Shown: positions 20,340 through 57,443 of the stretch, one piece after another
Position numbering within the stretch: the stretch's first letter is position 1
Layout: each line of letters begins with the position of its first letter
DNA from: a virus
Taxonomy: Duplodnaviria; Caudoviricetes
DNA length: 64,000 bases
Reading direction: 5' to 3' (one strand)
IMG/VR virus record: IMGVR_UViG_3300029288_004944
Span: 75,458-139,457 of that record
Made by a program: the position numbers and the translations under genes
Notes under the pieces: generated by a model
Seen by the model: the letters and a program-made list of their open reading frames with translations, nothing else
What the model was told of the DNA's origin: nothing
The model's database searches: none

Positions 20340-20696
20340 TCAAATTCTATCACATATCATTTTTAATCTTTCTTCCTGAATTCTTTCACTTTCAGCATGT
20401 ACCTCACAAAATCCAACTTCAATATCATTTATTAAATGAACAAATTCTTTTTCATTTCCGCTCCTAACAGTAACTTTACAACCAAAAATTTCAGCCAAAT
20501 TCGGAATATCTGTATACTTATTAAATACATGCCAATCAAGTATATAACTACCACTTGCTCTTAAATCAATTTCAAGTTTAATAATCTCAACTCGGGCTTT
20601 TCTTTCTGCTAAAACTATTGCAATTGCTATATTAGGATCATCTTCTTTTATCTTGCCCTCAGACCAACGATTAATTATTGTTTGAATTATATCCAC
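20340..20696 (-). CDS. hypothetical protein with divergent leader (MDIIQTIINRWS)
   Basis: GTG start with GGGGAG RBS. Confidence 0.65.
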   Translation of the reverse strand: MDIIQTIINRWSEGKIKEDDPNIAIAIVLAERKARVEIIKLEIDLRASGSYILDWHVFNKYTDIPNLAEIFGCKVTVRSGNEKEFVHLINDIEVGFCEVHAESERIQEERLKMICDRI

Positions 20697-20713
20697 TATA
20701 TCTCCCCATTAAA

Positions 20714-21292
20714 CTAACAATATCTCGTATCATTAACCACAATATTTCTGGAAGCAAAATAATCTGATATACAAATACAATACTCAAGCAAGTTCTCAGG
20801 CAAAGGACATCTATCAGCCTGCCAATGAGACATATGTACTTCTATTAGATCCTGAATACGCCTTGAATGCTTAAAAGGTTTCTGACCGACAATTATACTA
20901 CCATAAATGGGATGCAACTCAAAAGAACCATTCAACTTTCTTGAAAAATCAGTTTCTTTGTAGTATTTCCAATCCGGAGAATCTACTACCCCCTGCATTG
21001 TAATATCCAACATCCCAATATCGTGCATTAAAGATGCTGCAATTAAAATATTATAGTCATCCCCTGTAATTTTAAATTCTCTTGCCAACTCATGAGCAAA
21101 CCATACTGTTCTCTTTAAGTGAGTTATAATATCCCTGTCCTGCTCATGATATTTCCCTGACAAAGATGATGGTTGAACTAATAATTGTTCTTCATAGGCT
21201 TTAAATATCCTTTCTACATTGCTACGAATTACATCATCCTTAATCAATCCCAGTTCTTCTTTAAAAACAACTAAAATATCTTCACTCATCAA
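20714..21292 (-). CDS. HD-domain phosphohydrolase
   Basis: PSS.SGKYH, TH, HDIG, HP, HM, D. Confidence 0.85.
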   Translation of the reverse strand: MMSEDILVVFKEELGLIKDDVIRSNVERIFKAYEEQLLVQPSSLSGKYHEQDRDIITHLKRTVWFAHELAREFKITGDDYNILIAASLMHDIGMLDITMQGVVDSPDWKYYKETDFSRKLNGSFELHPIYGSIIVGQKPFKHSRRIQDLIEVHMSHWQADRCPLPENLLEYCICISDYFASRNIVVNDTRYC

Positions 21293-21313
21293 TTACTCCT
21301 TTATATTACTATA

Positions 21314-21718
21314 TTACTCTTCCGGAACTTCAAAATCGTTAGAGTGATCACAATTCTCATCTACACTTTGTTTTGTATTAGAATTATCAGCAGAACTTGC
21401 AGATCCTTCGCTCTTCTTAGATGATAATATTTGAATAGAACTGGCTTCCAACTGAGATTGTCGTTTATACATTCCTTTATTATTTTTATATGAATCACAA
21501 CGATACCTTCCTCCAACCATTACAAGCATACCTTTCTTTAGAATCTTTGACAATGCATCTGCTCGTGCATAAGAAACAACATCGACAAACATGTTGACAT
21601 CTTTACCTGCAAAATAATCCGAAACCCCAAGAGAAAACTTTACCACAGGCGTCTGCTTTGCCGTAAACTGCAATTCAGCGTCTGCCACCAAATACCCACA
21701 TATTGCTCCAAAAAACAT
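21314..21718 (-). CDS. ssb: single-stranded DNA-binding protein
   Basis: G.LVADAEL, FSLGV, L.KG.LV.V.GR, acidic tail. Confidence 0.88.
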   Translation of the reverse strand: MFFGAICGYLVADAELQFTAKQTPVVKFSLGVSDYFAGKDVNMFVDVVSYARADALSKILKKGMLVMVGGRYRCDSYKNNKGMYKRQSQLEASSIQILSSKKSEGSASSADNSNTKQSVDENCDHSNDFEVPEE

Positions 21719-21746
21719 TATTCCTCCCTTAATCTTTTATTTTTTA

Positions 21747-22442
21747 CTATCCTTTTATAATCTGTACCAATAATTTATTGATTACATCCAAATCAACTTC
21801 TTTTTGCAACTTTGTATTATTATAAGCATCATTTAATTCTCTATTTAATTCGTTATATCTCTTAACAATATCTTCATATTCAACTTCATAGTTCTTAATT
21901 TTAAGCAAATAGTCAGCATTTTTTCTTGGAAGCACAATTTCCCCATCTCTTAGATATTCAATACCCTCTTCCATTAATCTAACCATATTAAGAGCATTTT
22001 TGCTTAACCAACCATATTTTTCAATTAATTCTTTTCTTTTTGCTCCTGTCTTTTTATTAACCGTACTAATCGCCAAAAACTCTCCTTGGGCATACCCCCT
22101 AAAACACCTATAAATCTGCTCAGCCCCTAAAAATAATGCACGATTATTCCTAATAATTTTACCACGATAATCCATACGTAAAATACAAGGATCTGAAATA
22201 TAAAGTATTTCAAGAATATTTGGATTACATTCTGACGCTAATTTAAAAAAATCCTTTATAGGGTAATATACAGCATCTTCAACACTATCTCTTAATTCTT
22301 TTGGAGTAATAAGACATAAATGTTCTTCTAATGTCGGTAGCCACACTCCTCTTATATCTCTATCAGATGTAAGAGTAGCAGTTCCATACGAATGTGAGCC
22401 CGACAAAACTTCATATATTATATTTTTATTTCCTGTATCCAT
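21747..22442 (-). CDS. DNA-pol-beta superfamily nucleotidyltransferase (RlaP-like)
   Basis: GSHSYGT...SDRDIRGV, NPNILE. Confidence 0.88.
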   Translation of the reverse strand: MDTGNKNIIYEVLSGSHSYGTATLTSDRDIRGVWLPTLEEHLCLITPKELRDSVEDAVYYPIKDFFKLASECNPNILEILYISDPCILRMDYRGKIIRNNRALFLGAEQIYRCFRGYAQGEFLAISTVNKKTGAKRKELIEKYGWLSKNALNMVRLMEEGIEYLRDGEIVLPRKNADYLLKIKNYEVEYEDIVKRYNELNRELNDAYNNTKLQKEVDLDVINKLLVQIIKG

Positions 22443-22453
22443 TATTCCTTCCT

Positions 22454-22942
22454 TTATCTAACATTAGGCATAACAGCGCCCATTTGTTTTGAATCTTGCA
22501 AAACAGTCCAGTCATGACTCATTATTTCAGCCTCTTTATTTGAAATAAAATAAGTGGTATCATCTTTTGAACCTTTCAATATTTTACTCATTATAGTTTG
22601 CTCAACATCCGGTATTGGAATATAAATATGGGCAATATACCAATTAAAATTTTTGGAATAAGGATTATCATCTGCTATCCTATAAATAATACTTACATAA
22701 TAATAATCGAACAAGGGATCTTTCCCGTGTTTTGTAATCTGTGCCTTATATGATCCTTTTCGACAAAATAAAAATGTCCACACCTCCAAAAACATATCAA
22801 ATGTAAAAGAAGATCTAAAAGGAATACCACCATCCATTATTGTACTAAATGGCCATTGAATATAGGATGTAGTATATACCCTTGGCAAATCAGAAATATC
22901 GTCTTCTCCAAGTTTTTTAATTATCTCATCTTTCATATCCAT
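22454..22942 (-). CDS. hypothetical protein carrying the shared leader (MDMKDEIIKKLGED)
   Basis: 162-aa ORF; body unrelated to the MORN paralogues. Confidence 0.7.
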   Translation of the reverse strand: MDMKDEIIKKLGEDDISDLPRVYTTSYIQWPFSTIMDGGIPFRSSFTFDMFLEVWTFLFCRKGSYKAQITKHGKDPLFDYYYVSIIYRIADDNPYSKNFNWYIAHIYIPIPDVEQTIMSKILKGSKDDTTYFISNKEAEIMSHDWTVLQDSKQMGAVMPNVR

Positions 22943-23845: not shown

Positions 23846-25381
23846 TTACACTACTTTTCTTTTTGCAAGCATTGCTCTTGTACCTTGGCCATCTTTATTA
23901 ATGTGTACCCAATCACGTAAAAATTCTATATCTTCTCTTGCTGTTTCATATATAGGAACAGTATCCCTAACAGCCTTAATCAAATGAGTATCATCCAATT
24001 CTTTCTTTTCATAAAAAGCCATAACCAATGCAGTCTTTACAACCTGCTCAATTTCGGCTCCTGTAAAATTATTTGTAGCCTGCATTAACTGTTCAAGATT
24101 ATATTTCTTGGGATCTCTTTTTCTTTTAATTAAATGAATTGCAAATATAGCCATACGCTCAATTTCATCAGGAAGATCTACAAAAAATATTCCATCCCAT
24201 CTACCGCTTCTTTTTAACTCAGGGGGCAATAATGAAATATTATTTGCAGTTGCAACTAAAATAACATCTGATTTTTTATCCTGCATCCAAGACAAGAATG
24301 TTCCGACAACTCTTGCAGACGTTCCACCATCAGAAAAATTACTTGACTGTACTCCGGATAAACCTTTTTCCATTTCATCTATAAAAAGCACACAAGGAGC
24401 AATTGCCTCAATTGTTGCCAACACATTACGAGTATTACTTTCTGAACTACCTACGGTTGAACTAAACAACTTTCCTATATCTAATCTTATCATAGGCAAA
24501 CCCCATATACTTGCCATTGCCTTACAAGCCAAACTCTTTCCAACACCGGGAATACCTACAAGCATCAACCCTTTAGGCTTGTCCAATCCAAATTTTTCAG
24601 CCTCAGATGTAAATATATTCTTTCTACTTTTAAGCCAAAATTTAAGATCATCCATTCCACCAACATTATCCATATTCTCAGGAATTCCCACATAGTCAAG
24701 AAAACCTGTCTTATAAATAATTTGTTTTTTAATATCCCTCAACATTTCAACGTTTACATTACCATATTTATTTAAACTCAAACCTGCAGAAGAAGAAACT
24801 TCTGTCTTAGTTAAGCCTTGGGATGCACTAATTACATCGTGCATTTCATCTTCCGATAAAACCTTGAATTTTTTCTTTATAGATACACACCCATCTTCTA
24901 TTTTACGATACATATCCTCCAATTCTTCTTTTGAAGGCAATGGCCACTCAATAAGCATAAAAGTTCTCTGCCAATCAGGTGGTAAAATATTACACGTATG
25001 CACAAACATAAAGATAATCTTGGTTTTTCGCCACATTTCCTGCATGGTAGACATTGCCATCAAATCAGGCTGAGGTCTTGCTGCCGAAGATCCACATAAT
25101 TGTGGAACATCACGAATTATCAATATTGTTTTCTCTTGCTGACCTATCTTTTTTTCAATTTCTTTTAACGCAGGAACAAATCCTTGTGTGGTAGGAGAAA
25201 CTTCTTTTGTTCCCCTTAAACGTAAACCTGTTCCCAATGACCATTCCCATACATTTTTTTTCTCTTTATCATTACCATACTTTGTGTCAAACTCATCCAT
25301 AAACAATTCCATATCAGGAGCCACGACATATATAAAAGGAACTGTCGTTTCAATCATGTGTTTCAAATCATCTTTTTCCAT
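23846..25381 (-). CDS. AAA+ ATPase, Ycf46-like (degenerate N-terminal AAA plus active AAA)
   Basis: VGGMDDLKFWL, PKGLMLVGIPGVGKS, LFIDEMEK, LPPELKRSGRWD, FTGAEIEQ. Confidence 0.9.
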   Translation of the reverse strand: MEKDDLKHMIETTVPFIYVVAPDMELFMDEFDTKYGNDKEKKNVWEWSLGTGLRLRGTKEVSPTTQGFVPALKEIEKKIGQQEKTILIIRDVPQLCGSSAARPQPDLMAMSTMQEMWRKTKIIFMFVHTCNILPPDWQRTFMLIEWPLPSKEELEDMYRKIEDGCVSIKKKFKVLSEDEMHDVISASQGLTKTEVSSSAGLSLNKYGNVNVEMLRDIKKQIIYKTGFLDYVGIPENMDNVGGMDDLKFWLKSRKNIFTSEAEKFGLDKPKGLMLVGIPGVGKSLACKAMASIWGLPMIRLDIGKLFSSTVGSSESNTRNVLATIEAIAPCVLFIDEMEKGLSGVQSSNFSDGGTSARVVGTFLSWMQDKKSDVILVATANNISLLPPELKRSGRWDGIFFVDLPDEIERMAIFAIHLIKRKRDPKKYNLEQLMQATNNFTGAEIEQVVKTALVMAFYEKKELDDTHLIKAVRDTVPIYETAREDIEFLRDWVHINKDGQGTRAMLAKRKVV

Positions 25382-25405: not shown

Positions 25406-25726
25406 CTATATTTCCTTACCGGTTTTATAATTTAATACCACAAATTCTTTAAAATCTTTCTTTGAAAAAAGTTCTTTACCTGTTTTACCATATCTCTTTT
25501 TCTTAATCAATCTACCGTTTCTATACCATTTAAGAGTTTTAATATTTCCGTTCGGCCAATAATGCTCATATGCAGGCAAATCATTATCACGGTGAAAATC
25601 ACCTTTTTGATTACGCCAATGACGATAATAAAGGCTACCATTCTGCCAAAATTTCATTTCTGTTGGTTTGTCGTTATCGGCAATATCAGGCCCAAGACGT
25701 TTTATAATATCTTGCTTTATATCCAT
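25406..25726 (-). CDS. MORN-variant/YwqK-like repeat protein with shared leader, copy 1
   Basis: MDIKQDIIKRLGPDIADNDKP + HRDNDLPAYE...WYRNG. Confidence 0.8.
   Translation of the reverse strand: MDIKQDIIKRLGPDIADNDKPTEMKFWQNGSLYYRHWRNQKGDFHRDNDLPAYEHYWPNGNIKTLKWYRNGRLIKKKRYGKTGKELFSKKDFKEFVVLNYKTGKEI
25661..25726 (-). repeat. dispersed ~65-bp leader repeat (also 28289..28353, 47011..47075, 51331..51394, 56191..56256; partial ending at 55883)
   Basis: copy 1 vs 5: 65/66 identical; copy 2 vs 3: 62/65 identical. Confidence 0.92.
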
Positions 25727-25737: not shown

Positions 25738-26601
25738 CTATCTTATTACTCTTTTTTTATGTTTCTTTCTATGACAATCTTCACACAGTGTTATTCCATT
25801 GTTAACATCCCACAATGGTTCATACATCATTGCTGCTGTATAGAGATCGAATAGAGATAGATTGCCTTTTATCTCTTTCATGAAACTTGAAAAAGATCTC
25901 TTATTGTGGTGTGCATTTAAATTACCACCACTATCATCCCCACACTCTTGACACGTGTATCCATCTTTCTTAAAAATATCTGTACGCCATTGATCATATT
26001 TTAAAGAATTTCTTATCAATTGTATAACGGGTGTTATACCACCCTTCCAATTACCATTTTTTTCACCTTTACTTAATTCTGAATGTTTTCGTATTGTTTC
26101 TTCTGATGGATGTTTACCCACATGAGATTCTGATTGTTTTATTCTTGTTTCTTCTGATGGATGTTTATGCCAATTACAATTCTTTTCACCCTTTTGCGAT
26201 TCTGATTTTTTCTTTTTCCATTCTTCTGTATGAGATTTACCATAATTATGATTTTTTTCACCACATTGAGATTTTGATATTTTTTGTCTTGTTTCTTCTG
26301 TGAGAGAATGTCCCATCAAAGATTCTGATTGTTTTCGTTTTGATTCCTCTGTGCGAATCTTACCCTTATGTGATTTTGAATTTTTTCTATTGTGTTCTTC
26401 TGATGGGTGTTTACCAATCTTATCATGTCCTTTTATATATTTACATTCATAACCCATCTTAGTATATTTTGAACGTAATTGATTGCAACCACAAGGGCAT
26501 AAAATTTGAATAGATAAACACTCATCACAAACTTCTTTTTTATTGGGCTTTAATGTACCATCATTGGATTTATGACAAGATTTAATTCTACAATGCATCA
26601 T
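25738..26601 (-). CDS. HNH homing endonuclease with NUMOD3 repeats
   Basis: repeated GKHPSEET..K.SES.KG; C..C...AHH...NGITLC..CH; start at ATG after AGGGAG. Confidence 0.88.
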   Translation of the reverse strand: MMHCRIKSCHKSNDGTLKPNKKEVCDECLSIQILCPCGCNQLRSKYTKMGYECKYIKGHDKIGKHPSEEHNRKNSKSHKGKIRTEESKRKQSESLMGHSLTEETRQKISKSQCGEKNHNYGKSHTEEWKKKKSESQKGEKNCNWHKHPSEETRIKQSESHVGKHPSEETIRKHSELSKGEKNGNWKGGITPVIQLIRNSLKYDQWRTDIFKKDGYTCQECGDDSGGNLNAHHNKRSFSSFMKEIKGNLSLFDLYTAAMMYEPLWDVNNGITLCEDCHRKKHKKRVIR

Positions 26602-26631
26602 ATAAACATTCTCCCTATTTCTTACACACAT

Positions 26632-26660
26632 ATTATAGCACATAATATGTCATTTGTCAA
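26632..26660 (-). promoter_or_regulatory. sigma70/sigmaA promoter
   Basis: TTGACA-17-TATAAT, extended -10 TG. Confidence 0.88.
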
Positions 26661-26663: not shown

Positions 26664-27872
26664 CTATGCTGTTTTTTCTATTATTATTATCGGATTACAA
26701 GCCTCAATTACCATATCTTTTGTAATCTTAATAGATGACTGCTTATTTCCAATATCAAACATAGGAGCAAGCAATATCTTTTCCATAATACTACGCAAAC
26801 TCCTTGCTCCGGTCTCTCTTTTAATCGCTTCTGTTGCAATTGCATCAATAGAATCTTTTTCAAATGTTAAAACAATGCCTGCCATTTTAAATATTTCAAT
26901 ATATTGACTTACAAGGGAATTCTTAGGCTCAGTTAGAATCTTTACAAGATCTTCCCTGCTCAATGAATGCAAAGATAATGTAATGGGTAGCCTGCCCAAA
27001 AACTCAGGAATCATCCCAAACTCTTTAAAATCTTCATAGGACACTTTCTGATATAAATCATCTTTAGACAATTCTTTTTTAAACTCGGATGTAAATCCCA
27101 AAATACCATTTTTCTGCACGCGTTTCTTAATAATTTCTTCTATGCCCTCAAATGAACCACCACAAACAAACAAAATATTTTTTGTATCCATCATCATAGT
27201 TTCAACAGAATATGATTTTTTTACCCCCTCTTTTGGAATTTCAACAATTGAACCTTCAAGCATTTTTAATAAAGCCTGTTGAACTCCTTCACCCGATGGA
27301 TCCCTACCAAAATGCCTGCTTGGCCCGGAACTTGCTATCTTGTCCACTTCATCAATATATACAATACCCTGCTCAGCCAACTCCATATCTCCATTAGAGG
27401 CTGTATAAAGCCGTTTAAGAACATTCTCAACATCTTCACCCACATATCCCGATTGTGTTAAACTCGTGGCATCTGCAACAGCAAAAGGAACGTTTAAAAT
27501 ACGAGACAATGTTTTAAGAAGGAATGTTTTACCAACACCTGTTGGACCTAACATTAATATATTGGACTTTTCAATTTCAATGTTAGAATGAGAATTTATC
27601 CTTTTATAATGATTATAAGATGCAACCGATAATATCTTTTTGGCTTCATCTTGTCCTATAACATATTCTTGCAATTTATTGTAAATATCCTTCGGCAATA
27701 AATTCAATTCAACAAATCGTTTCTTTTTAACCTGATTTTTTTCCACAACAGTTTTAAAAAAAGTTCTTAGACAATCATAACAAATATGAATAACCCTACC
27801 ATCGTCTATCTCTTTTGATATAGTTTTACTCTCATCAACTATATCTCCGTGAAAATCACAATTAACCAACAT
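26664..27872 (-). CDS. clpX: ATP-dependent Clp protease ATP-binding subunit ClpX
   Basis: VIGQDEAKK, KSNILMLGPTGVGKT, GYVGEDVE, DEVDK, GEGVQQALLK, LGF loop, TGARSLR. Confidence 0.96.
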   Translation of the reverse strand: MLVNCDFHGDIVDESKTISKEIDDGRVIHICYDCLRTFFKTVVEKNQVKKKRFVELNLLPKDIYNKLQEYVIGQDEAKKILSVASYNHYKRINSHSNIEIEKSNILMLGPTGVGKTFLLKTLSRILNVPFAVADATSLTQSGYVGEDVENVLKRLYTASNGDMELAEQGIVYIDEVDKIASSGPSRHFGRDPSGEGVQQALLKMLEGSIVEIPKEGVKKSYSVETMMMDTKNILFVCGGSFEGIEEIIKKRVQKNGILGFTSEFKKELSKDDLYQKVSYEDFKEFGMIPEFLGRLPITLSLHSLSREDLVKILTEPKNSLVSQYIEIFKMAGIVLTFEKDSIDAIATEAIKRETGARSLRSIMEKILLAPMFDIGNKQSSIKITKDMVIEACNPIIIIEKTA

Positions 27873-28053: not shown

Positions 28054-28353
28054 TTAAACATAATCCATTAATAAATCTTCATCATCTATATATTCAATTA
28101 ATCTTCCATCCGTTCTATATTCTTCTCTTTTAACAAGTACACCATTCTTATACCATTGACGAGATAGAATGATGCCTGATTCATAAAACTCTTCATAGGC
28201 AGGGAGATCTTTATCTCTATGATAGTTTCCACATTTATCGTACCATTTAAAATAACGAATCTTACCATTAGGCCAATATACAACTTGTGATGGTTTATCA
28301 TTGTCAATAATATCAGGCCCAAGACGTTTTATGATATCTTGTTTTATATCCAT
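28054..28353 (-). CDS. MORN-variant repeat protein with shared leader, copy 2
   Basis: MDIKQDIIKRLGPDIIDNDKP + YWPNG...HRDKDLPAYE. Confidence 0.8.
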   Translation of the reverse strand: MDIKQDIIKRLGPDIIDNDKPSQVVYWPNGKIRYFKWYDKCGNYHRDKDLPAYEEFYESGIILSRQWYKNGVLVKREEYRTDGRLIEYIDDEDLLMDYV

Positions 28354-39400: not shown

Positions 39401-39590
39401 TCACTTTTTTATACCCCTGTTTCTCGTAAAACTCTTTCGGCAACAGTTTGATAAGTTCGTTGTCAAGAGAATGGTCGGCGATGGCCTGTTTTAATCGCTC
39501 TTCAATATTAATTTCCATTTGTTTGTCCTCAATTTGCCAATAGTCTAAATTAATTGCTTCAAGAAAACTTTTCTGCTCAACCTCTTTCAT
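36480..39590 (-). CDS. run of small hypothetical ORFs (36480..36908, 37212..37418, 37776..38123, 38272..38469, 38481..38918, 38893..39087, 39103..39297, 39297..39590 and shorter ones)
   Basis: co-oriented, mostly with GGAG-type RBS; no recognisable motifs. Confidence 0.6.
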
Positions 39591-40537: not shown

Positions 40538-40925
40538 TATTTTTCCCCTTAAAATAGTCTTCAAGAATTTGTCTATGATCAAAAGCGATAGCCATTGGTA
40601 AATCATCTTTTCCAAAAACACTTATACTGCCGGCATCATCTCCTGCATTCAATTTTCCCACTCCCTTGGCTGTAAATACAACCGTAATGGTGTGCCCTCT
40701 CGGATCTCTATTAAGATCTGAATAAACATGAAATTGCCTTAAATCTTTAAGTTCAAGACATGTTTCTTCTTTCATTTCTCTAATTGCCGTTTCTTCTACG
40801 CTTTCACCGTACTCAACAAACCCTCCGGGAATAGCCCAACCATAAGGAGGATTTTTTCTTTCTATAAGAATAATGCCTTTGGGCATTTCAATAATCACAT
40901 CACTTGTAATACTTATATGTTTCAT
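40530..40925 (-). CDS. Nudix hydrolase, ADP-ribose pyrophosphatase-like
   Basis: [23 protein letters not shown] Nudix box, RDPR, AGDDA, AFDH. Confidence 0.9.
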
Positions 40926-41082
40926 TTTGATCTCCTTAATTATTCTCCATCATAAATTACAGAACCGTATCCCTTTTTTCTTAATGCTTTATCTCTCTTT
41001 TTACAATAATGACAATGTTTGTGAAATGTTTCAATCTTATCATTATTATTTTTACACTTTTTACAACATTTTTCAGTTAATT

Positions 41083-42725
41083 TCACATTGTCTCCTTTAT
41101 CTTATTTTCTATCTTTAAATTTTTTAAACACTCGGTTATTGCATCCCACTTACAGCAACCGACAAAAGTTCCTAAATATCCATATCCTGCGACGTGCAAA
41201 TTATAATGTGAATCATTCCGTGAGAAATGTTCCACATAAATATCATTCATCTTTATTTTTAATCTTTGTCGTTCTATCCTACAAGATGATTTACACATAT
41301 TGTGTATTGCCATCATATCACTCCTTTATATATCCGTTCTTTTTTAAATAAATCCACATTTCTGCAAGGGCTTGGGATAGAGATTTGTTTTCAAATTCCG
41401 GGGTAGCCAACCTATGAAACCAACTATAACAAACACGATATTCATTATCTGAAATTTTACAAAAATCTAAACAGTAAAAATAGTTTTCAAATTTTATACT
41501 TGTTGGCAACTCTTTCAAGATTTCATCTGAAAGGGGGGCAGGTAAAATAGTTACAACCATTTCATATTTTTTTATATTTTCGGTTAAGTCTAAAATACTC
41601 CCCTTCTTGAAAAATATATGACTAAATTCAGTTTCACAGTCCCATCCCTCTCTATCCATCAAGGCAGCAATTGATGGGGGTACACAATATTTAGTCATTA
41701 CTCCTCCTCTTATTATTTAAATTTTTAATAAAAGCATATATGTCATCAAAGCAACTACCTGCAAAAATCGTGTTGGCCTCAGGGAAAAAAGCATATTGCC
41801 TCCAAGCAGGAAACCATTTAATTATTCCCAACAAATGATGACCAACTATTGAAACAACATTCCATTTTTCAGATTTACCTTCATAGGTTTCATCTTGTTC
41901 AAAATTTATCCACTTTGACATTATTCTCTCCTCAATAATTATTCCCATCTCTTCCATCGTAATATGATTCTACTCCGTGAAATTCATCACACACTGATTT
42001 CCTTATTCTATACCAACCCTTTTTATTCCGGCCAAGCAATCCCATTTTTACCATCTTTAAACATATAGGAGAAGCCCAAGCAGAATGATAATTCCCACCC
42101 TTCAATGTCCTTCCAAGTTCAGTCGGACTTACAAACCTTTTACTTTCAGAAGCAAGAGAATATAAAAAATCAAATATCATTCTCTCGTCATGACTCAATG
42201 TAACATCTCTATCATTAACAGTAAAATCCATTGATCCCCCTCATTTCTACCGAATTCTTTTTACTATAATTATACTCCCCGTATCTGTTATAATCGCCAT
42301 TCTATTATCATTTCCATACTCAGGACTCCATTGATCTACCACACACATTGCATTTGGATATTTTGAATGTATCTTATCCCATAAAATTTTATCCACTTCT
42401 TCCACTAAAAATAATCCCAAAACAATAAGTACCATAACCATTATAAGAGAAACTATCCCCACTTTTAATGCTTCCATTTTTTTCATTCTCTTATCCTCCT
42501 ATTTTTCTTTATCCATTCTATAAAACTCGGAAAATCAAATGCCCAAAATACAGCAATAGGAATATAAAAACCCATGCAAGATAAAGCCATAAGTGTTATA
42601 TAAAAAGGAAAAGGAAACATTCCCCTAAATAGAGCATTTAATCCCATAACAAATGCAAGTATAAAAAGAACAGTTCCAAAAATCCCACTTATAGTAAAAA
42701 TCCAAGAACATAAACTTCTTTTCAT
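41083..42725 (-). CDS. run of small hypothetical ORFs (41083..41316, 41318..41698, 41691..41921, 41932..42231 wHTH-like, 42247..42486 and 42483..42725 membrane)
   Basis: ORF track; hydrophobic segments; SPTELG...GLL.RN..GWY pattern in 41932. Confidence 0.6.
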
Positions 42726-43986: not shown

Positions 43987-45525
43987 TTAAAATAATTCCA
44001 TTTGATCACTACTTTTTTCCCTTTTATCACCTTTGATCACTTTTTTACTTTTTGATTCAACTTTCACTACTCCTTTTTGTCTATTGTTTTGAACATCTGA
44101 CCAATATTTCAATCTTGCTTCGGAAATTTTACAATACTCTTTCTCTTTCTCTATTGCAATATACTTTCTACCCAAGTTCCCACATGCTATTGCCGTAGTT
44201 CCAGATCCTGAAAAAAGATCAATTACTATTCCATTTTTAGAACAAACCAAATTAACAAGATACTCCATTAATGCTATCGGCTTCACACACGGATGAATGT
44301 TCTTTGCTTTTAGAGCATTTATATTATTATCCATGGTTCTTTTTTCTACCGAACATTTTCTACCAATACCCCCTGAATTTAATTCAGATTTCCTTAAAGG
44401 AAGTTCTTCTAATCCCTCATTTTTTTCACGCACACCTGCTTTTGCACAATAAAAAAATCTGGAAGCACCCCCAATATCTCCGTATGTTTCCATTAAATAT
44501 TGATTATTAAACTTTCCATATATACCATGAGGACTTTGATACTTACCCATAGTTTTATCTCTTTTATGTAAGTTAGGAGACATATATCCACTTTTCAATA
44601 TACCTGTTTGAATATCTAATTCTTTACCTGCTTCCTCATCAAAAATTATATTAGAAGGAAAACGACCTTCATTCGAACTTAATACATTTTTTGCACATAT
44701 ATCTCCATGCGAAGGTTTATTTGTATTATAATTTCCTCCCCTTATATCTGTTTGAGTGCCAAATCTTGCACTTTCTTTATCCTCTTCATTTTTATATCCT
44801 ATTCTTGTCCCATCAATATTAATTCCACCCGTACCCCATTTCAAAACATTAAGAGCAACAGTATTCTCTGACAAAGGCTTTCGAGCAACCACGATGGGCT
44901 CACATGCAGGTTTAAGAGCAGTTCCCCATCCTTCCCATTCGGAATTACCTTTATCTTTTATTCTGTTTGTTTTGAAAATTCCATAATCAACAGTATCATA
45001 TTTTTCTTTATTGTTATGCCTCTCATTTCCATCTGGTGCTATATAATTTCCAACAATCTCTCTATTGTTCCCCTGTAATTTATCAATCGCCTTTCCTATA
45101 TTCAAACTTTTTGGAAATCCTTGCGAATATATCCACATCATACAATCTCTTATTTCAAAACCGGCATCCTCAATCCCACATATCAACCTATGATGTGTCC
45201 TCGTACCACCAAAAGCAAGTAAAAAAGCACCTGGTTTTAAAATTCTCAACAATTCATTACCCCACTCCTGACACCATTGTTGATAATTGTGCATATCTGA
45301 TTTAAAAAATCTTGGCAAGATTTTAAAATTTTTCTTCACTTTTAAATCATTATCACCTTCTTCCCCTGCTCTACCAAATCTATCAAAACTATCCCATTCT
45401 TTACCCATAAATTCTAATCCGTATGGAGGATCTGTAATACAAGCGTCAATACTATTATCAGGTAATGTTTTCATAATTTCTATATTATCACCACATATAA
45501 CCTCCCCTATAGGCAAATTACTCAT
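43987..45525 (-). CDS. N6-adenine DNA methyltransferase (phage type, beta class)
   Basis: TDPPY, GWGTALKPA.EP, ASRFFYCAKA, HPCVKP, DLFSGSGTT; start MSNLP. Confidence 0.93.
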   Translation of the reverse strand: MSNLPIGEVICGDNIEIMKTLPDNSIDACITDPPYGLEFMGKEWDSFDRFGRAGEEGDNDLKVKKNFKILPRFFKSDMHNYQQWCQEWGNELLRILKPGAFLLAFGGTRTHHRLICGIEDAGFEIRDCMMWIYSQGFPKSLNIGKAIDKLQGNNREIVGNYIAPDGNERHNNKEKYDTVDYGIFKTNRIKDKGNSEWEGWGTALKPACEPIVVARKPLSENTVALNVLKWGTGGINIDGTRIGYKNEEDKESARFGTQTDIRGGNYNTNKPSHGDICAKNVLSSNEGRFPSNIIFDEEAGKELDIQTGILKSGYMSPNLHKRDKTMGKYQSPHGIYGKFNNQYLMETYGDIGGASRFFYCAKAGVREKNEGLEELPLRKSELNSGGIGRKCSVEKRTMDNNINALKAKNIHPCVKPIALMEYLVNLVCSKNGIVIDLFSGSGTTAIACGNLGRKYIAIEKEKEYCKISEARLKYWSDVQNNRQKGVVKVESKSKKVIKGDKREKSSDQMELF

Positions 45526-46792
45526 TGTCAATAGCCTCCTCTTTCTTGTTAAACTCCAAAGCAAGAGACTTCGCATCCCTTATTGTTTCTCCCATATCCA
45601 TATATGCCCACGATCCATACCTACCTTTACTGTATATGTTTTTAGACATCAAGTATTCCTGAATTATATCCACTCGTTTTTTCCATCCCTTATCAAAAAT
45701 TGTATATGCCGGATTCAAATAATCAACTATCGGCAATACAACATTATTGCCATCTATCTCCAACGATTCAAGCATATTCACATCCGATACTAATCCCAAC
45801 TTCTTATCCTTGTACATTGATATCTCAAAGGATACGACATCGTAATTATCAGGACAGGTAAACGTTGAAAAAGACTTCATAAAATATGCTCTCATAAAGG
45901 GCATTTTAGGATCAGATGCATAGATCCAATGCGTATTCAATGGACTATTGTTCTTTGTTTTATAAATAAATGATAAAACATACATTGATGTATATTTCAA
46001 ATTCTTTGCTGCCGATTTAACTTTATAGGGAGCATTCTTAATATATTTTACCATATGGTGCAAAGGAATACTTGACACTATGGTTTCCCATTTTTCTTCA
46101 ACACCATTCATTTTTATGATCTTTTTATCTACATCAATATACTCTATATTACAATTCAACAAACAATTATCTCTCTTTATTGTTTCAGCAATCTTATTTA
46201 CAACCATTCCTGCCCCGCCCATTTGCGGATAATAAAATGAATCATTATACCCTTTACTCCCGGACTCGGCTATCCTATTAGATTTTATTAACTCAATCTT
46301 TGTGTCAGGAAATCTCCAATATTTCTTGTTATATGGCGTAAAAAAATATTTCATCATTGCATTGCCGAACTTGCTTCGCATTGATCTACCTATACTTGAT
46401 TCATCAAATCCTGATTTATTCCCTTTCTTTTGTGCCTTCAAGAAATCTTTTTCACACTCTCCTGCCACTTTCTTATTTAAATGTTTATAATTGGTCTGAA
46501 AGGGATAATCAATAACTTCCGGCTTATTAAATCCTTTACCTGAATTATATATTCTTGCATGCCTTTCCTGCTTTATTAAATTACAACCCAATCCATTAAG
46601 CCAAGCAATATCATCCTCTTTCAATGAGTGAAAAATATGCCCGGCCCTGTCAATTACAATGCGATATCCGACTCCAACCGATCTGCAATAACCGCCAATA
46701 TAAGGATCTCTTTCGATGATCCTATACTCTTTGCCTTTTAAAAAATGAGCAAAAGTTAAACCATAAAGTCCGCCACCAATTACGTGTATCAT
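45518..46792 (-). CDS. FAD-dependent oxidoreductase, UDP-galactopyranose mutase/HemY-like
   Basis: IGGGLYGL, GGYCRS, GHIFH, PYN.K.W, F.YP..GG, GRYGSW.Y. Confidence 0.82.
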   Translation of the reverse strand: MIHVIGGGLYGLTFAHFLKGKEYRIIERDPYIGGYCRSVGVGYRIVIDRAGHIFHSLKEDDIAWLNGLGCNLIKQERHARIYNSGKGFNKPEVIDYPFQTNYKHLNKKVAGECEKDFLKAQKKGNKSGFDESSIGRSMRSKFGNAMMKYFFTPYNKKYWRFPDTKIELIKSNRIAESGSKGYNDSFYYPQMGGAGMVVNKIAETIKRDNCLLNCNIEYIDVDKKIIKMNGVEEKWETIVSSIPLHHMVKYIKNAPYKVKSAAKNLKYTSMYVLSFIYKTKNNSPLNTHWIYASDPKMPFMRAYFMKSFSTFTCPDNYDVVSFEISMYKDKKLGLVSDVNMLESLEIDGNNVVLPIVDYLNPAYTIFDKGWKKRVDIIQEYLMSKNIYSKGRYGSWAYMDMGETIRDAKSLALEFNKKEEAIDNE

Positions 46793-47075
46793 TTTTTCCT
46801 CTCTCTATAACAGATTCTATTATACTTACATTTTCATCATATTCTTCATGTCTAATGCGCCTATTATTTATATACCATGAACGGCCTCTAATTCTACCAT
46901 CATCGTTATAAACCTCATAAGCAGGGAGATTACCATCTCTATGTATCAAACCAACCTCATTAAGCCATACTTTATATTGAATATTGCCATTTGGCCAATA
47001 TCTAATCCTCGATGGTTTATCATTGTCAATAATGTCAGGCCCAAGACGTTTTATGATATCCTGCTTTATATCCAT
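46722..47075 (-). CDS. MORN-variant repeat protein with shared leader, copy 3
   Basis: MDIKQDIIKRLGPDIIDNDKP + HRDGNLPAYE; tail overlaps next gene by 71 nt. Confidence 0.78.
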   Translation of the reverse strand: MDIKQDIIKRLGPDIIDNDKPSRIRYWPNGNIQYKVWLNEVGLIHRDGNLPAYEVYNDDGRIRGRSWYINNRRIRHEEYDENVSIIESVIERGKNDTRNWWRTLWFNFCSFFKRQRV

Positions 47076-50829: not shown

Positions 50830-51137
50830 TTTTTACCCAACATATCCAAGATTGCGTGAATATGCCCAATATTTTTATTTCGTTTCTCTTCTGATAAAAC
50901 AGTTAAAATTTCTTCTTCACCTTTCTTGGGCTTTATTGATCTCATTTCAATATTATGTTCACTCTGCACTCTATATCCTGCACAATCATTGCATAAGAAT
51001 TTTATTGTCTTCATATTACCCTTATAAACATTAACGGGCTCTTCTCCAACAAATGTCTTATATGGACGATCTTGTGTCCTATATGTCATAACCCGGGCTA
51101 ATTTTCCCGTAATCTTACCACATTCTTGACATTTCAT
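50826..51137 (-). CDS. hypothetical zinc-binding protein
   Basis: CQEC...CNDC. Confidence 0.65.
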   Translation of the reverse strand: MKCQECGKITGKLARVMTYRTQDRPYKTFVGEEPVNVYKGNMKTIKFLCNDCAGYRVQSEHNIEMRSIKPKKGEEEILTVLSEEKRNKNIGHIHAILDMLGKK

Positions 51138-51394
51138 TTTATTATTTCTCCGTTTTCATCATAATGTTCTGATCTAATCTGCACACCATCCTTAAACCAA
51201 AAGCGATAAGAAATATTGCCATTCTCATAAAACCATTCAGAAGCAGGAAGATCGTTATCACGATAAAGTTGATCATTTTTATACCAACGACGAGTTGCAA
51301 TTCTTCCATTTTTCCAATGTTTAACAATGGTTGGCTTATCATTATCAGCAATATCAGTCCCAAGACGTTTTATGATATCTTGTTTTATATCCAT
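51134..51394 (-). CDS. MORN-variant repeat protein with shared leader, copy 4
   Basis: MDIKQDIIKRLGTDIADNDKP + YRDNDLPA. Confidence 0.8.
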   Translation of the reverse strand: MDIKQDIIKRLGTDIADNDKPTIVKHWKNGRIATRRWYKNDQLYRDNDLPASEWFYENGNISYRFWFKDGVQIRSEHYDENGEIIK

Positions 51395-51395: not shown

Positions 51396-52307
51396 TTATT
51401 TTTTCATATACTTCATTACAGAATTTAATGCCTCATCTCTAACATCATTTTCTATCCCATTTTCTTTTGCTAATGTTTTAATCACTTCTATTAAATCTAA
51501 TTGATCAAATCCTTCAACAGTATTCAATTTATTCATAAAATCTTTTATTTCTCCGGAAACAACCCCATCCATCTCCATTGCTTTTAAATCGAACACACTT
51601 TCAGGCATTTCTGCTGATTCCAAATTAATTTTTTCTATCTCTTTTGTTTCGGTATCAAATAAAATCACAGAAACTTTTTCCCTATCTGAATCATCTTTAC
51701 TCAATCTTACCAATGATCCAGGATTAATATATCTCGTATCACCATTCATTTTATCAAATGGCTGATGATAATCTCCACACAATACAAGATCTGCATTGGT
51801 TTCCAAATCAGAAATCAAGTGATGCTCAAAAGGACAAGGTTTTGGGGTTATCGTATTATGAGTTATAATAATCTTATATAAATCCTTATCTTCTTTGGGG
51901 AAATTACATACAACTTCGCTCTCAGAAGTATAATCTATACCCTTAAACACAGCATTGCCAATCTTTAAATCATTCAAACGATGAACCATTCCTGCATTTA
52001 TAAGACCACCCAATCCACACTTATACAATGTTTCCATATTATGGCTATCCACATCATGTTGGCCAACTACACTATAAAATGGTATCTTATTCTCTGATAA
52101 TAATCCCAATATAAAATTAAATACAACAAACGATGGATCCTGAACATCGCAAAGATCTCCGCCAAAAAAAATAGCATCAACTTTTTTATCTTTGGCTATA
52201 TCCATAACTTCGTGCATCTTAATCATTTCTGTATCAAAAAAATCATCAATACGCCTACGAGGCCTCATATATCTTAAATGACTATCTGTAAAAAAAAGTC
52301 CCCTCAT
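51396..52307 (-). CDS. SbcD/Mre11-like nuclease
   Basis: TDSH, GGD, GQHD, TH, GDYH, NPGS..R. Confidence 0.9.
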   Translation of the reverse strand: MRGLFFTDSHLRYMRPRRRIDDFFDTEMIKMHEVMDIAKDKKVDAIFFGGDLCDVQDPSFVVFNFILGLLSENKIPFYSVVGQHDVDSHNMETLYKCGLGGLINAGMVHRLNDLKIGNAVFKGIDYTSESEVVCNFPKEDKDLYKIIITHNTITPKPCPFEHHLISDLETNADLVLCGDYHQPFDKMNGDTRYINPGSLVRLSKDDSDREKVSVILFDTETKEIEKINLESAEMPESVFDLKAMEMDGVVSGEIKDFMNKLNTVEGFDQLDLIEVIKTLAKENGIENDVRDEALNSVMKYMKK

Positions 52308-53559: not shown

Positions 53560-54852
53560 TTACTTAAACTGTTCAATAATATTATCCACACTCTTTTCTG
53601 TTATATCCGAAAAACAAGTTGGACACTTTTTAGACTTTTTTAACATATCAATATATTCATTAACAACAGCATTACAGTCTTCGATTATTTCGCTTTTCTT
53701 TAACTCCAAAAATTCCAATTCTTCTCTTGTTTTATCAAACATTTCTTTTACTAATTTAATCTTATTTAACTTTTCATATGATGAAATAATAATATCCATA
53801 ATACTAAAATCAACTACTTTCATTTTTTCTGACTTACTTTTCAAAACACTTAGGTCATCTTTGATCAAAAGAAACCGATCTGCCAAACCACGTAAAACCT
53901 TATATTGATTATACTTATCAATCAAGATATCCATTACTTTCAAGTCTATTGACTTAAACAGTTCTTTCTTTTTCAACAATCCATCTCTATCTTCAATAAC
54001 ACTATTATAATTATCACAAAGATTGAACATTACCTTATATTTATTAAAATTCTCTACAATCTTCTCCATTATTTCAAAATCTAAATTTTTAAACAATTCT
54101 TTCTTTCTTAGTAGTATCTTTTTGTCCTCAATAATATCCTTATATGTATTATTAAGTGCATATAAAACATCATATTTTTCTTTCGCTTGCAAAATTTTAT
54201 CTATCAAACTTTTTAATTCAGACAACTTTTCTTTTATAATATCCATATCTTTATACTCATCTATCTGCAATTTCAAAGATTCCAATTCATCGCTTAAAAA
54301 TTTTTGTTCCTTTTTTATCCCACCCAAATCTTTATTCTTATCTTGTATAGCAAGATCAACAGCATCATTACCTGATATATTGCTCAATATCTTTGCCTTG
54401 GTAGAATCAGGATCTAATAATAAAAATGGGGACTCTTTCTGCTTACGATAATTAATCTGATAAGTCATATCTCCTATAACCAACGATCTCAATTTTAATA
54501 CATCCGATACATCCTCAGGAACAGTATTCTCAACATTCTCAAAAGGAATCTCTTGGCCATTAGCCATTGTTATAACATATTTATTAACCGTTTTACTTCC
54601 AATCTTGCCCTTTATACGTGCAACACGGACACCACTATCCAATTCAATTTCAACCTTAAAAGACTTAGTACCGTGGCGAATAAACATATCTGCACCACGT
54701 GGTTGATTATACAATATGATACTTAACGCCCTTAAAACAGATGTCTTGCCGGAATCGTTTCTTCCTACAATACAGTTATAACCATCAGAAAAATCAATTT
54801 CAGTATTTTTGTGCGATTGAAAATTCTCAAGCATTATTTTTTTTATATACAT
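53560..54852 (-). CDS. SbcC/Rad50-like ATPase, N-terminal half (Walker A, coiled coil, zinc hook)
   Basis: ENFQSH, GRNDSGKT, Q-loop region, ends shortly after CPTC. Confidence 0.9.
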   Translation of the reverse strand: MYIKKIMLENFQSHKNTEIDFSDGYNCIVGRNDSGKTSVLRALSIILYNQPRGADMFIRHGTKSFKVEIELDSGVRVARIKGKIGSKTVNKYVITMANGQEIPFENVENTVPEDVSDVLKLRSLVIGDMTYQINYRKQKESPFLLLDPDSTKAKILSNISGNDAVDLAIQDKNKDLGGIKKEQKFLSDELESLKLQIDEYKDMDIIKEKLSELKSLIDKILQAKEKYDVLYALNNTYKDIIEDKKILLRKKELFKNLDFEIMEKIVENFNKYKVMFNLCDNYNSVIEDRDGLLKKKELFKSIDLKVMDILIDKYNQYKVLRGLADRFLLIKDDLSVLKSKSEKMKVVDFSIMDIIISSYEKLNKIKLVKEMFDKTREELEFLELKKSEIIEDCNAVVNEYIDMLKKSKKCPTCFSDITEKSVDNIIEQFK

Positions 54853-54864: not shown

Positions 54865-55503
54865 TTATCCCAATTTACTTACCCCATTTTCATCCTGTAC
54901 AATCTTTATTACTTTGCTTGCATAAGGTAAAAACTTTTCTTCGTGTGTAATAGAAATAATCTGTCTATTCATTGTTTTACTCATATCTTTCATAAACTGT
55001 CCCATCTTTTCAAGATTAATATCATCAAAACTTTCTCCTTCCTCATCTATGATCATAGGCCCTTCTATGACAGGAAGAGATAATCTTAAAAATATTATTC
55101 TCATTGCAATAGACAGGACATCGCTAATACTTCCACCCTTGGAATTAATTGGATCCAACTCAACCCATTCATCCCCCATCTTTGTCCAAACAATAAACCG
55201 GGCATTGGGAGCATTTCTCAATATCTCATACTTGATCTCAAATCTATACCCATCTCCCATAATAGTCTGCAAAGCAAAAGTCACGAGATCTTCAATACGT
55301 TTTTTAGTCGTTGCCCTCAAAGCCTCAGCAGCCAACTGCAAAAATAAAGATGTCTTTTGTAATAATTCAATTCTTTTATCCATTACTTGAATTTTAGATT
55401 CTTTATCCTGAATATTCTTCAATAACAGATCTCTTTTGCCCTCTTTACTATTGTAATCACGCAAAAGATTATCATACTTTAATATTAAATTCTCAACATC
55501 CAT
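54865..55503 (-). CDS. SbcC/Rad50-like ATPase, C-terminal half
   Basis: coiled coil, signature-like SKGG, Walker B IIDE, H-loop QIISITH. Confidence 0.88.
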   Translation of the reverse strand: MDVENLILKYDNLLRDYNSKEGKRDLLLKNIQDKESKIQVMDKRIELLQKTSLFLQLAAEALRATTKKRIEDLVTFALQTIMGDGYRFEIKYEILRNAPNARFIVWTKMGDEWVELDPINSKGGSISDVLSIAMRIIFLRLSLPVIEGPMIIDEEGESFDDINLEKMGQFMKDMSKTMNRQIISITHEEKFLPYASKVIKIVQDENGVSKLG

Positions 55504-55522
55504 AACAACTCCCTTTATTTAT

Positions 55523-55551
55523 AGTATAGCATACTTTTAAGCAAAAGTCAA
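55523..55551 (-). promoter_or_regulatory. sigma70/sigmaA promoter
   Basis: TTGACT-17-TATACT, extended -10 TG; -35 overlaps the upstream TGA stop. Confidence 0.85.
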
Positions 55552-55883
55552 GGAAAATCAACTCCCCTACAATAGTCAACTACATCTCCTTGTTCATTAT
55601 ATTCTTCTCTATCATTAAAATGACCTGCCTCCCACCATTCGAGAGATTCAAGACTACCATTCAATCTATATTCTTTTCTTTTAACAAATACACCATTCTT
55701 GTACCAATTACGATATCGGATATTTCCATTTTCATAAAACTCTTCATATGCAGGAAGATCATTATCACGATGGCATTGACTATTTTTATACCAAGAACGA
55801 TATTTTACAATACCATTTGGCCAATATTCCACATTAACAACATTAGATCCCAACCTTTTAATAATATCTTGTTTTAGGTCCAT
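55548..55883 (-). CDS. MORN-variant repeat protein with shortened leader, copy 6
   Basis: MDLKQDIIKRLGS + HRDNDLPAYE; start at TAA-T-ATG junction. Confidence 0.8.
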   Translation of the reverse strand: MDLKQDIIKRLGSNVVNVEYWPNGIVKYRSWYKNSQCHRDNDLPAYEEFYENGNIRYRNWYKNGVFVKRKEYRLNGSLESLEWWEAGHFNDREEYNEQGDVVDYCRGVDFP

Positions 55884-55884
55884 A

Positions 55885-56256
55885 TTAATTTTTCCTATTT
55901 TTACATCTCTTATCAAGATTGCCCTTCTTAGTATATCTTTTCATTCCCAAATATTTTTCACCTTCCCACCATTGAAGAAATTCAGCATTCCCATTTTCGT
56001 AAAAAAATACTCTTGAAGGAAGATCGTTGTCTCTATGCAATTGACCATTCTTGTACCAAAGACAAGAGCCATTATTGCCATTCTCATAAAACCATTTACG
56101 GGCAGGCAAACCATTATCCCTATGAATTTGACCCTCTTTATTATGCCACTCATTAAGTCTAATATTACCATTTGGCCAATAATCAACTACTGTTGGTTTG
56201 TCGTTATCGGCAATATCAGGCCCAAGACGTTTTATGATATCTTGCTTTATATCCAT
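55885..56256 (-). CDS. MORN-variant repeat protein with shared leader, copy 5 (two HRDN units)
   Basis: MDIKQDIIKRLGPDIADNDKP + HRDNGLPA, HRDNDLPS. Confidence 0.82.
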   Translation of the reverse strand: MDIKQDIIKRLGPDIADNDKPTVVDYWPNGNIRLNEWHNKEGQIHRDNGLPARKWFYENGNNGSCLWYKNGQLHRDNDLPSRVFFYENGNAEFLQWWEGEKYLGMKRYTKKGNLDKRCKNRKN

Positions 56257-56262
56257 TTTATC

Positions 56263-56559
56263 CTATCTTTTCTTACTTTTATTCATTTTTTTCTTTAAGT
56301 TTAACCATTCTTTTTTAGACGCGCACAACATTTCTCCTATACTTTTACCTCTATTACTCGGACAATTATACCCAGTTGGCATACCTCGAGCCCCATCTAT
56401 ATCAGAACAACTATCATTTTTATAACATGGGCAACCAACACATGCAATACTTATTGCATTACGGGCATAGTAATCACTTGCATTGTAATAATATTTTCCA
56501 TTAATGGCAAATTTCATGCCTAACGAAAGAAATTTTTTGTTGAATTTTTTCTTTTTCAT
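56263..56559 (-). CDS. basic Cys-rich hypothetical protein
   Basis: 98-aa ORF. Confidence 0.6.
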   Translation of the reverse strand: MKKKKFNKKFLSLGMKFAINGKYYYNASDYYARNAISIACVGCPCYKNDSCSDIDGARGMPTGYNCPSNRGKSIGEMLCASKKEWLNLKKKMNKSKKR

Positions 56560-57443
56560 TTTATTGCCCTATGAGTTACATCACCTTCCTTTCTTCCACC
56601 ACTACCATATCCATACCACCAATCACTTCGCCAATCTGCGTTAAATTTTTGTTTCAATAAATCAATTCTTGCCAAAATATCTTCTTTGGACATTAATGGA
56701 ATCTTGATAAAGCGTTGCAACCTATTTTTAATTTCTTGTTTTACTTTATCTTGAAATTCTTTTTTTAAAAGATTTTTTATTTTTTCTGCAAGCACATTTT
56801 CTTCCACTGATGACATTCTCCCTTTACTATCAACATCTACAATGAATTCACTTAATAAATTAGTTTGCAAATATAAATCTTTGGTACCTTTATTTCTAAA
56901 TATAATATCAAAATCTTTAAAATCAGGATTATTCTCTACATCTATTATATTATTATCTTTTAATGATTTAAAAAATTTTCCTCTTAAACTTATCTTTTGG
57001 GGCAATGCAATTTCATACCTACACATTATACCATAAACATATTTTTTCCCACAAATAAAAAATGAAAGTTTTATATCTTTTGTATAAGGAACTACATCAT
57101 AGATTTCATCATCATCATCCCACTCTTTTATATTTAATCCCAATTGAGTTGCATACAAAACCATTATTTTATATATATTATTTTTCTCATCACATCCATC
57201 TCCAAAATATTTTTGTATATCAAAATCCATAATCTCATTATATTGTTTTAAAATATCATTTTCAATAACCTTTGGAAGTTCATGTATATCATAATATCCA
57301 TCTAAATCTTTCATTTTTATTCTTTTCTTGGTATTCAAACGATTACTATGTTCTTTTGCCTTTTTATGACCTTTTATATCAATATGTTCATTCTCTCCAA
57401 CATCCGGAGACCAACGTTTAATTACCTCTTCTTTTAAATCCAT
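56556..57443 (-). CDS. hypothetical protein with leader variant (MDLKEEVIKRWSPDV)
   Basis: 295-aa ORF, GGAGG RBS. Confidence 0.7.
   Translation of the reverse strand: MDLKEEVIKRWSPDVGENEHIDIKGHKKAKEHSNRLNTKKRIKMKDLDGYYDIHELPKVIENDILKQYNEIMDFDIQKYFGDGCDEKNNIYKIMVLYATQLGLNIKEWDDDDEIYDVVPYTKDIKLSFFICGKKYVYGIMCRYEIALPQKISLRGKFFKSLKDNNIIDVENNPDFKDFDIIFRNKGTKDLYLQTNLLSEFIVDVDSKGRMSSVEENVLAEKIKNLLKKEFQDKVKQEIKNRLQRFIKIPLMSKEDILARIDLLKQKFNADWRSDWWYGYGSGGRKEGDVTHRAIK

Follow-up and report, generated by a model that had tools for sequence, protein, structure and literature searches.

Why do small proteins with unrelated bodies, scattered over a phage genome, begin with the same few residues? The question is raised by a 64,000-nucleotide stretch of Caudoviricetes DNA (hereafter the window), which comprises bases 75,458–139,457, the last 64 kb, of the 139,457-bp IMG/VR virus record IMGVR_UViG_3300029288_004944. 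An initial annotation, made from the letters of the window alone, had noticed an N-terminal leader of 21 residues on six dispersed MORN-like paralogues and, in variant form, on three proteins with other bodies, and had proposed that it is a portable sorting signal that delivers a diversified set of binding proteins. We found all nine of these genes on the minus strand with the N termini described, and corrected the start of one of them. The shared element proved to be a peptide of 14 residues, MDIKQDIIKRLGPD in its exact form (hereafter the tag), whose carriers make up about one-ninth of the genes in the record. On balance, we favour the reading that residues 1–14 are a portable N-terminal docking or address peptide.

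A profile of the first 15 residues, scanned over the genome and its relatives as the initial annotation had suggested, identified 23–24 tagged open reading frames (ORFs) in the 139-kb record, nine of which lie in the window, and a related phage was found to carry the same tag. All of these 23–24 tags are N-terminal and on the coding strand, with a start codon no more than 24 residues after the preceding stop, and the profile found no internal match in 141,174 six-frame residues. The members scored 12.7–31.5 bits, compared with 10.1 bits for the best of five shuffled sets and 6.8 bits for the best match in 650 kb of unrelated metagenome DNA. The wider tag family follows the pattern M-x-h-I-[DEQ]-x-h-I-x-R-[WL]-[GSAK], within which we distinguish an MDIKQ subtype and an R-W subtype.

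The three proteins of the window with non-MORN bodies belong to this family. In leave-one-out scoring, all three exceeded the genome background, in which the best N terminus outside the family reached about 11.5 bits, and none of 2,000 shuffles attained the score of any of them. The 295-amino-acid protein encoded at 56556–57443 (29.4 bits) begins with MDLKEEVIKRWSPD, a form between the two tag subtypes. The 118-amino-acid protein at 20340–20696 (27.3 bits), which starts at GTG and carries the tag (V/M)DIIQTIINRWSEG, had been regarded as a weaker match; it belongs securely to the R-W subtype, of which MGIIETMIERWGEGK is another example in this genome. The weakest member is the 162-amino-acid protein at 22454–22942, with the variant MDMKDEIIKKLGED (13.8 bits). 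Outside the window, the exact 14-residue tag also heads two non-MORN proteins (genome positions 44299–44574 and 45795–46217) with unrelated bodies, which bears out the earlier claim that the leader is portable and not confined to MORN bodies.

Seven further carriers form one MORN-like family, with bodies built of WYxNG...HRDNDLPA beta-hairpin units. Six of them are in the window, all on the minus strand. The exact tag is present in those of 106 (25406–25726), 99 (28054–28353), 117 (46722–47075) and 123 amino acids (55885–56256), the 86-amino-acid copy (51134–51394) has the tag with threonine at position 13, and the 111-amino-acid copy (55548–55883) has the tag MDLKQDIIKRLGSN and is without the 'DNDKP' half-repeat described below. 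This last gene is in tandem with 55885–56256; its start is the ATG at 55883, one base past the stop of its neighbour, and not the TTG at 55916. The seventh copy (genome positions 67389–67667), which is outside the window, has the exact tag.

The leader as originally delimited is longer than the portable element. By direct reading of the sequences, 'D-N-D-K-P-[ST]-x-V-x-YWPNG' in the leader region aligns with the repeat unit 'D-N-D-L-P-A-x-E-x-FYENG' of the bodies. Because the DNDKP stretch matches the MORN repeat unit, it is best regarded as a half-repeat of the body, and only residues 1–14 are portable. Judged from the alignment, then, the 21-residue leader is a composite of a portable tag (residues 1–14) and a degenerate first MORN half-repeat (residues 16–22), so that the first part of the proposed leader stood and its DNDKP part did not.

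Tag and bodies have evolved very differently. Among the six MORN paralogues, nonsynonymous and synonymous differences per site (pN and pS) were 0.011 and 0.31 in the tag and 0.41 and 0.53 in the bodies, and 11 of the 22 invariant columns of the family are in the first 12 residues, the others being the repeat scaffold (W, N-G, R-D..L-P-A). Consistent with the diversified bodies described in the initial annotation, the pN/pS ratio of the MORN bodies was 0.8–0.86, compared with 0.06–0.10 in neighbouring genes. In a second tagged family, taken together with its members from the related phage, the only invariant columns are I4, I8, R10 and W11 and one body residue. Exact-tag copies differ only synonymously in at least seven codons, and the peptide pattern persists in the R-W subtype although the DNA that encodes it is quite different, which indicates that the peptide is what selection sees.

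Fragments of the related phage, recovered by means of the profile search, allowed the same contrast to be drawn between orthologues. Samples with fragments of relatives are JGI 3300037067 and 3300035208, SRR8542065, SRR18595300 and ENA ERZ27247363. One fragment (L009) holds the positional orthologue of 51134–51394. The preceding gene is 92% and the two following genes are 94% identical at the protein level, with pN/pS of 0.06–0.10 and a pS similar to that of the MORN body, whereas the body is 43% identical, with a pN/pS of 0.86; the tag of the orthologue is about 85% identical. Precisely over the interval from the tag to the stop codon, identity at the DNA level is about 60% instead of about 90%. 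The body in the relative is at least as distant from its positional orthologue as from the other paralogues; it has therefore been exchanged or has evolved at about ten times the rate of its neighbours. The syntenic island of the relative carries six or seven R-W tags. These patterns indicate that purifying selection acts on the tag peptide while the bodies are hypervariable.

Structure prediction also separated the tag from the bodies. With the paralogue alignment, AlphaFold2 predicted for the MORN protein at 55885–56256 a helix over residues 3–10, with a predicted local distance difference test (pLDDT) score below 50 for residues 1–17, followed by beta-hairpins with pLDDT of 70–80. For the second family, which has three members, it predicted a helix over residues 3–12, about 18 low-confidence residues and then an alpha/beta body. 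The helix was confidently packed on neither the all-beta nor the alpha/beta body. The tag pattern places hydrophobic residues at positions 3, 4, 7, 8 and 11, with a near-invariant Arg10, Trp or Leu at position 11 and a Gly/Pro cap. A low-confidence helix in front of two different bodies argues that the leader is not an integral capping helix of the repeat. Because the tag occurs beyond MORN bodies, is not predicted to cap the repeat and, in its divergent forms, outscores shuffled N termini, the finding survives the three objections that the initial annotation had anticipated. Its observation was confirmed and its interpretation partly supported; new are the division of the leader, the standing of 20340, 22454 and 56556, the tenfold rate contrast between orthologues and the finding that neither external MORN relatives nor the head module have the tag.

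To what kinds of protein is the tag attached? With the tag removed, comparison by phmmer grouped the bodies into the MORN family of seven, the family of three, two pairs and about nine singletons. In isoelectric point, tagged bodies are no different from other small proteins (median 6.4 versus 6.8). The non-MORN bodies matched no family in Pfam, PHROGs or NCBIfam. A word-based search with a tagged non-MORN protein recovered no more than a fragment with 95% identity and one protein belonging to this phage, and the ESM Atlas returned nothing usable for the 295-amino-acid protein. A DUF2190-like decoration fold, considered for some bodies, was rejected as Pfam support was absent.

The MORN bodies belong to a much larger group. 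A word-based search with one of them returned the query as its sole match, and single sequences remained below the curated cut-off of Pfam PF07661 (best 23.3 versus 29.6 bits) and had no NCBIfam match. A profile of the seven paralogues, however, collected 975 relatives at E ≤ 0.001, many of which have PF07661 or are named YwqK antitoxin in their source. Foldseek comparison of the MORN model with the PDB gave no match at E ≤ 0.001; the weak matches included the MORN domain of SET7/9. The family thus resembles small PF07661/YwqK-like proteins in its repeat homology at the profile level and its beta-hairpin body, and differs from them in carrying the tag and in having no adjacent toxin gene: no YwqJ/LXG-type toxin gene was present among the identified neighbours of the MORN copies. 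We found no tag in the best 112 external MORN homologues. The tag thus looks like something that this lineage alone has added, both to a widespread family of repeats and to several orphan bodies.

The tag itself has a narrow distribution. When 1.84 billion representative proteins were searched exhaustively with the tag profile (HMMER), there were 21 matches at E ≤ 0.001, all from this phage or near relatives save one internal match in a 1864-amino-acid protein, and a degenerate DNA pattern for the exact 14-residue tag had no matches in IMG/VR. In these searches the tag is confined to one phage lineage, and this restriction suggests that its reader would be phage-encoded or fast-evolving. The N-terminal tags MNRYDIALGKKP and MNWYK reported from other huge phages, each likewise a short peptide on many unrelated small proteins, differ in sequence and in phage lineage; the tag described here belongs to a phage-G-related lineage and is borne by an expanded MORN-like family.

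In the docking reading that we favour, residues 1–14 would form a three-turn amphipathic helix, a docking peptide joined loosely to the body. The phage lineage would have attached this peptide to about 24 small proteins, which evolve fast and have several unrelated folds; among these, the seven MORN-like paralogues are one expanded family of putative beta-hairpin binders. One receptor specific to the lineage would read the peptide. Tagged proteins may then be loaded into the prohead and enter the next host together with the DNA. We rate capsid loading as the single most likely route, possible rather than probable in itself, because the leader of the phage T4 internal proteins is the closest documented case. 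The T4 proteins Ip1–3 have only their N-terminal leader in common; they are packaged, are injected and inhibit host restriction enzymes, each a different GmrSD enzyme (PMC12373910). The T4 capsid targeting sequence is summarised in PMC5694885. As in this phage, the leader of Ip1–3 and Alt is a short N-terminal peptide (10–20 residues) on unrelated, fast-evolving bodies, and each genome has several genes that carry it, some at dispersed positions. In T4, the cargoes inhibit host defence specifically (PMC12373910, PMC5694885). The tag has no sequence similarity to the T4 leader and has about 24 carriers rather than 3–5, and the head is of the phage G/HK97 type with a protease–scaffold fusion, unlike that of T4. 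What the two systems share is the mark of a T4-type leader, a short N-terminal peptide common to unrelated proteins of one phage. Docking, any particular receptor, virion packaging and an anti-defence role are inferences.

Several observations weigh against this reading, and in particular against capsid loading. We found no [LI]-x-E or [SAG]-x-E at a fixed distance after the tag, and K-x-[AS] occurs in 4 of 24 tagged and 38 of 172 untagged proteins, at no fixed position. No tagged protein is encoded in the 21.6 kb around the portal, protease–scaffold fusion and major capsid protein genes, and the MORN copies of the window have genes of replication, repair and nucleotide metabolism around them and are distant from the head module. 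A different N-terminal motif, M-x-[KD]-F, starts six proteins at genome positions 14503–52332 (L001, L003, L004 and L005), against 1.3 expected (p about 0.002 for an excess that was chosen after the fact); four of the six proteins are 374–2246 amino acids long, and the stretch adjoins the head module. In addition, five large untagged proteins share an internal motif of the SSLNKK[AS] type. These two motifs look more like head propeptides and protease sites than the tag does and may be a second leader and protease-site system for head-internal proteins, and M-x-[KD]-F is at least as good a head-propeptide candidate as the tag. The two AlphaFold2 models are both modest, with mean pLDDT of 62 and 65, and low pLDDT is no proof of a free helix. 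Finally, pS is lower in the tag (0.31) than in the bodies (0.53), and some constraint at the DNA or RNA level, or gene conversion, may add to selection on the peptide.

Four other ideas were rejected. The N-terminal 'LIDQRLGA' of the major capsid protein is out of register with the tag and scores nothing. A double-glycine leader was dismissed because, among 24 aligned tags, G-[GAS] at positions 12–13 is present only in MDLAKEIAKRLGGD; no C39 peptidase or ABC exporter was seen among the annotated genes. The tag has no Q..h..aromatic pair, as a PIP-box or clamp-binding motif would, and is without the hydrophobic core of a signal peptide.

The low pS of the tag is also a point in favour of the best-surviving alternative, in which the tag has no addressing role and is instead a remnant of common ancestry, an element of self-association or folding, or a 5′ coding element that acts in translation initiation or as a homology arm for cassette swapping. 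At the DNA level, copies of the tag are about 90% identical, both within and between phages, several bodies fall into small paralogous families, and a body in the relative that is no nearer to its orthologue than to the paralogues is compatible with cassette exchange. However, an element working through its DNA is difficult to reconcile with the codons that differ only synonymously and with the R-W peptide encoded by different DNA, and conservation begins at the ATG itself; upstream of it the DNA, ribosome-binding sites included, is unrelated between copies. Descent from a single ancestor is hard to square with modelled bodies that are all-beta in one family and alpha/beta in another. We consider this explanation improbable.

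Somewhat lower in our estimate, and unlikely, is that the tag binds a component of the host, either a protein that all carriers target or the membrane, on which it would be an in-plane amphipathic anchor. In its favour, Arg10 and Trp11 border the hydrophobic face of a strongly amphipathic helix, and across subtypes it is mainly the hydrophobic pattern, not the polar face, that is kept. Within the MDIKQ subtype, by contrast, the polar residues too are invariant over nine copies despite synonymous divergence, which indicates a stereospecific protein interface rather than general membrane affinity. The net charge of the tag is only about +1, with two acidic residues. A conserved host target, moreover, should select similar tags in other phages, and none was found.

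A third alternative, which we regard as quite unlikely, is that the tag tethers its carriers to an AAA+ unfoldase. The carriers would then either act as adaptors, handing over host proteins that they have bound to be unfolded or degraded, or be phage proteins that are themselves destroyed on schedule. The phage encodes two candidate readers, both on the minus strand of the window. The first is a full ClpX (26664–27872) with a zinc-binding N-domain (CxxH..CxxC) and the LGF loop for docking to ClpP, which passes the NCBIfam equivalog cut-off (484 versus 359 bits). The second (23846–25381) is a 511-amino-acid AAA ATPase of the classical clade, CDC48/PAN/FtsH-like and below every family cut-off. 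The MORN genes 25406–25726 and 28054–28353 are 24 nucleotides upstream of the AAA ATPase gene and 181 nucleotides upstream of clpX, respectively (the initial annotation had pointed out that they precede these genes directly), and in each case a MORN paralogue is the nearest upstream non-endonuclease gene. Such adjacency has a chance probability of about 0.0012, a figure not corrected for the gene class having been chosen after the fact; although the positions hold, the link to the two ATPases is only suggestive. A phage-encoded reader would fit the lineage restriction of the tag. The tagged proteins have the layout of known ClpX adaptors such as SspB, in which a linker joins a short peptide at one terminus to a variable domain for binding.

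Adjacency to an AAA+ gene is nevertheless seen for only two of the seven MORN genes and two of the approximately 24 tagged genes, and clpX has its own promoter-like site in the gap that follows the MORN gene. The phage ClpX is 45–50% identical to cellular ClpX over its full length; an enzyme so ordinary and cellular-like is not the lineage-specific reader sought, and a tag read by the conserved zinc-binding domain should recur in other phages, where none was found. The 139-kb record contains no clpP gene, and the tag did not match by eye the tether motifs of SspB and UmuD. Co-folding of two copies of the ClpX N-domain (residues 1–62) with the tag alignment gave a score of 0.00, which is neutral for binding. 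A ClpX scan of metagenome contigs found only ClpX genes at 44–52% identity, judged cellular by their divergence, and no related phage.

An extension of this alternative would make the carriers a phage-borne family of substrate receptors, in which the tag recruits diversified binders to ClpX or to the CDC48/PAN-like ATPase and host defence proteins are destroyed; we give it very little credence. Poxvirus ankyrin-PRANC/F-box proteins, an expanded family with one conserved docking motif and variable repeats, are like SspB and the tagged proteins in joining a short terminal motif to a variable domain; the motif described here is N-terminal.

The surroundings of clpX include two near-perfect sigma-A-type extended −10 promoter sites on the minus strand. 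One (28045–28017; TTGACT-17-TATAAT) is the site in the gap before clpX and the other (26660–26632; TTGACA-17-TATAAT) is just before, or overlaps, the start of a NUMOD3-motif endonuclease gene (25738–26643, minus strand); the total of sigma-70-like sites is not above that of shuffles (48 versus 49.9). The endonuclease gene, whose product has an HNH-like C terminus by eye, is between clpX and the pair of MORN and AAA ATPase genes. Two further NUMOD3 genes flank the portal and terminase genes (L010:4333–5010 and L010:11769–12467) on a longer contig described below.

The other neighbours of the MORN copies include GDP-mannose-dehydratase-like, Mre11-like, split Rad50-like and amine-oxidase-like genes. 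The 3′ end of MORN gene 46722–47075 overlaps the next ORF, which is amine-oxidase-like, by 71 nucleotides (46722–46792) when the longest such ORF is taken, and the C-terminal tail of its product (WWRTLWFNFCSFF...) is unlike those of the other paralogues. MORN gene 51134–51394 is between the Mre11-like phosphoesterase gene and a gene for a 103-amino-acid protein. The phosphoesterase and the split Rad50-like ATPase form a repair module (51396–52307, 53560–54852 and 54865–55503, minus strand) with which MORN genes are interleaved; the ATPase is divided into a 430-amino-acid part with the zinc hook and a 212-amino-acid part. Immediately downstream of the tagged gene 22454–22942 is a gene for an RlaP-type RNA-repair nucleotidyltransferase (21747–22442, minus strand). 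Inside a tag-dense island outside the window, an untagged protein of 1135 amino acids (genome positions 38473–41880; L001:5473–8880, minus strand) has an RNA ligase annotation through its PHROG match, and the orthologue from the related phage (L007:711–3989) matches Pfam Acb1 and, weakly, a 2′,5′ RNA ligase.

In searches for relatives of the phage, the portal protein had no close relative in IMG/VR, and 5.5 kb of the window had no megablast match among GenBank phages. The nearest cultured relative by portal is Bacillus phage G, at 35% identity. The record has a G+C content of about 32%, with 189 of 206 crude ORF calls on the minus strand, and encodes a portal and a large terminase. Other genes of the window encode NrdD, NAPRTase, two DNA methylases and an SNF2 helicase, in addition to the Mre11/Rad50-like proteins, ClpX and the second AAA ATPase. 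The sequence of the record is contained in a 216,802-bp ENA metagenome contig. Downstream of the portal gene, this longer contig encodes a 993-amino-acid head-maturation protease–scaffold fusion (L010:13653–16634, plus strand), with a protease domain at residues 27–234 followed by a long Lys/Glu-rich region that looks scaffold-like in sequence, and directly after it a 153-amino-acid protein and the 307-amino-acid major head protein.

What the tag means for this phage depends on its reader, and its value is limited for now, as the phage is uncultivated and the function deduced. If one receptor reads the tag, 14 residues would mark a whole class of about 24 otherwise unannotatable genes. Should the carriers be substrate receptors, they would be a bacterial-virus counterpart of the poxvirus ankyrin/F-box families. 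Foreign proteins might also be loaded by means of the tag, a use to which the T4 leader has been put. A tag that stays fixed on MORN copies whose rate of change is roughly tenfold that of adjacent genes bears the mark of an arms-race payload attached to a constant handle, and the hypervariable bodies are good candidates for host-specific inhibitors.

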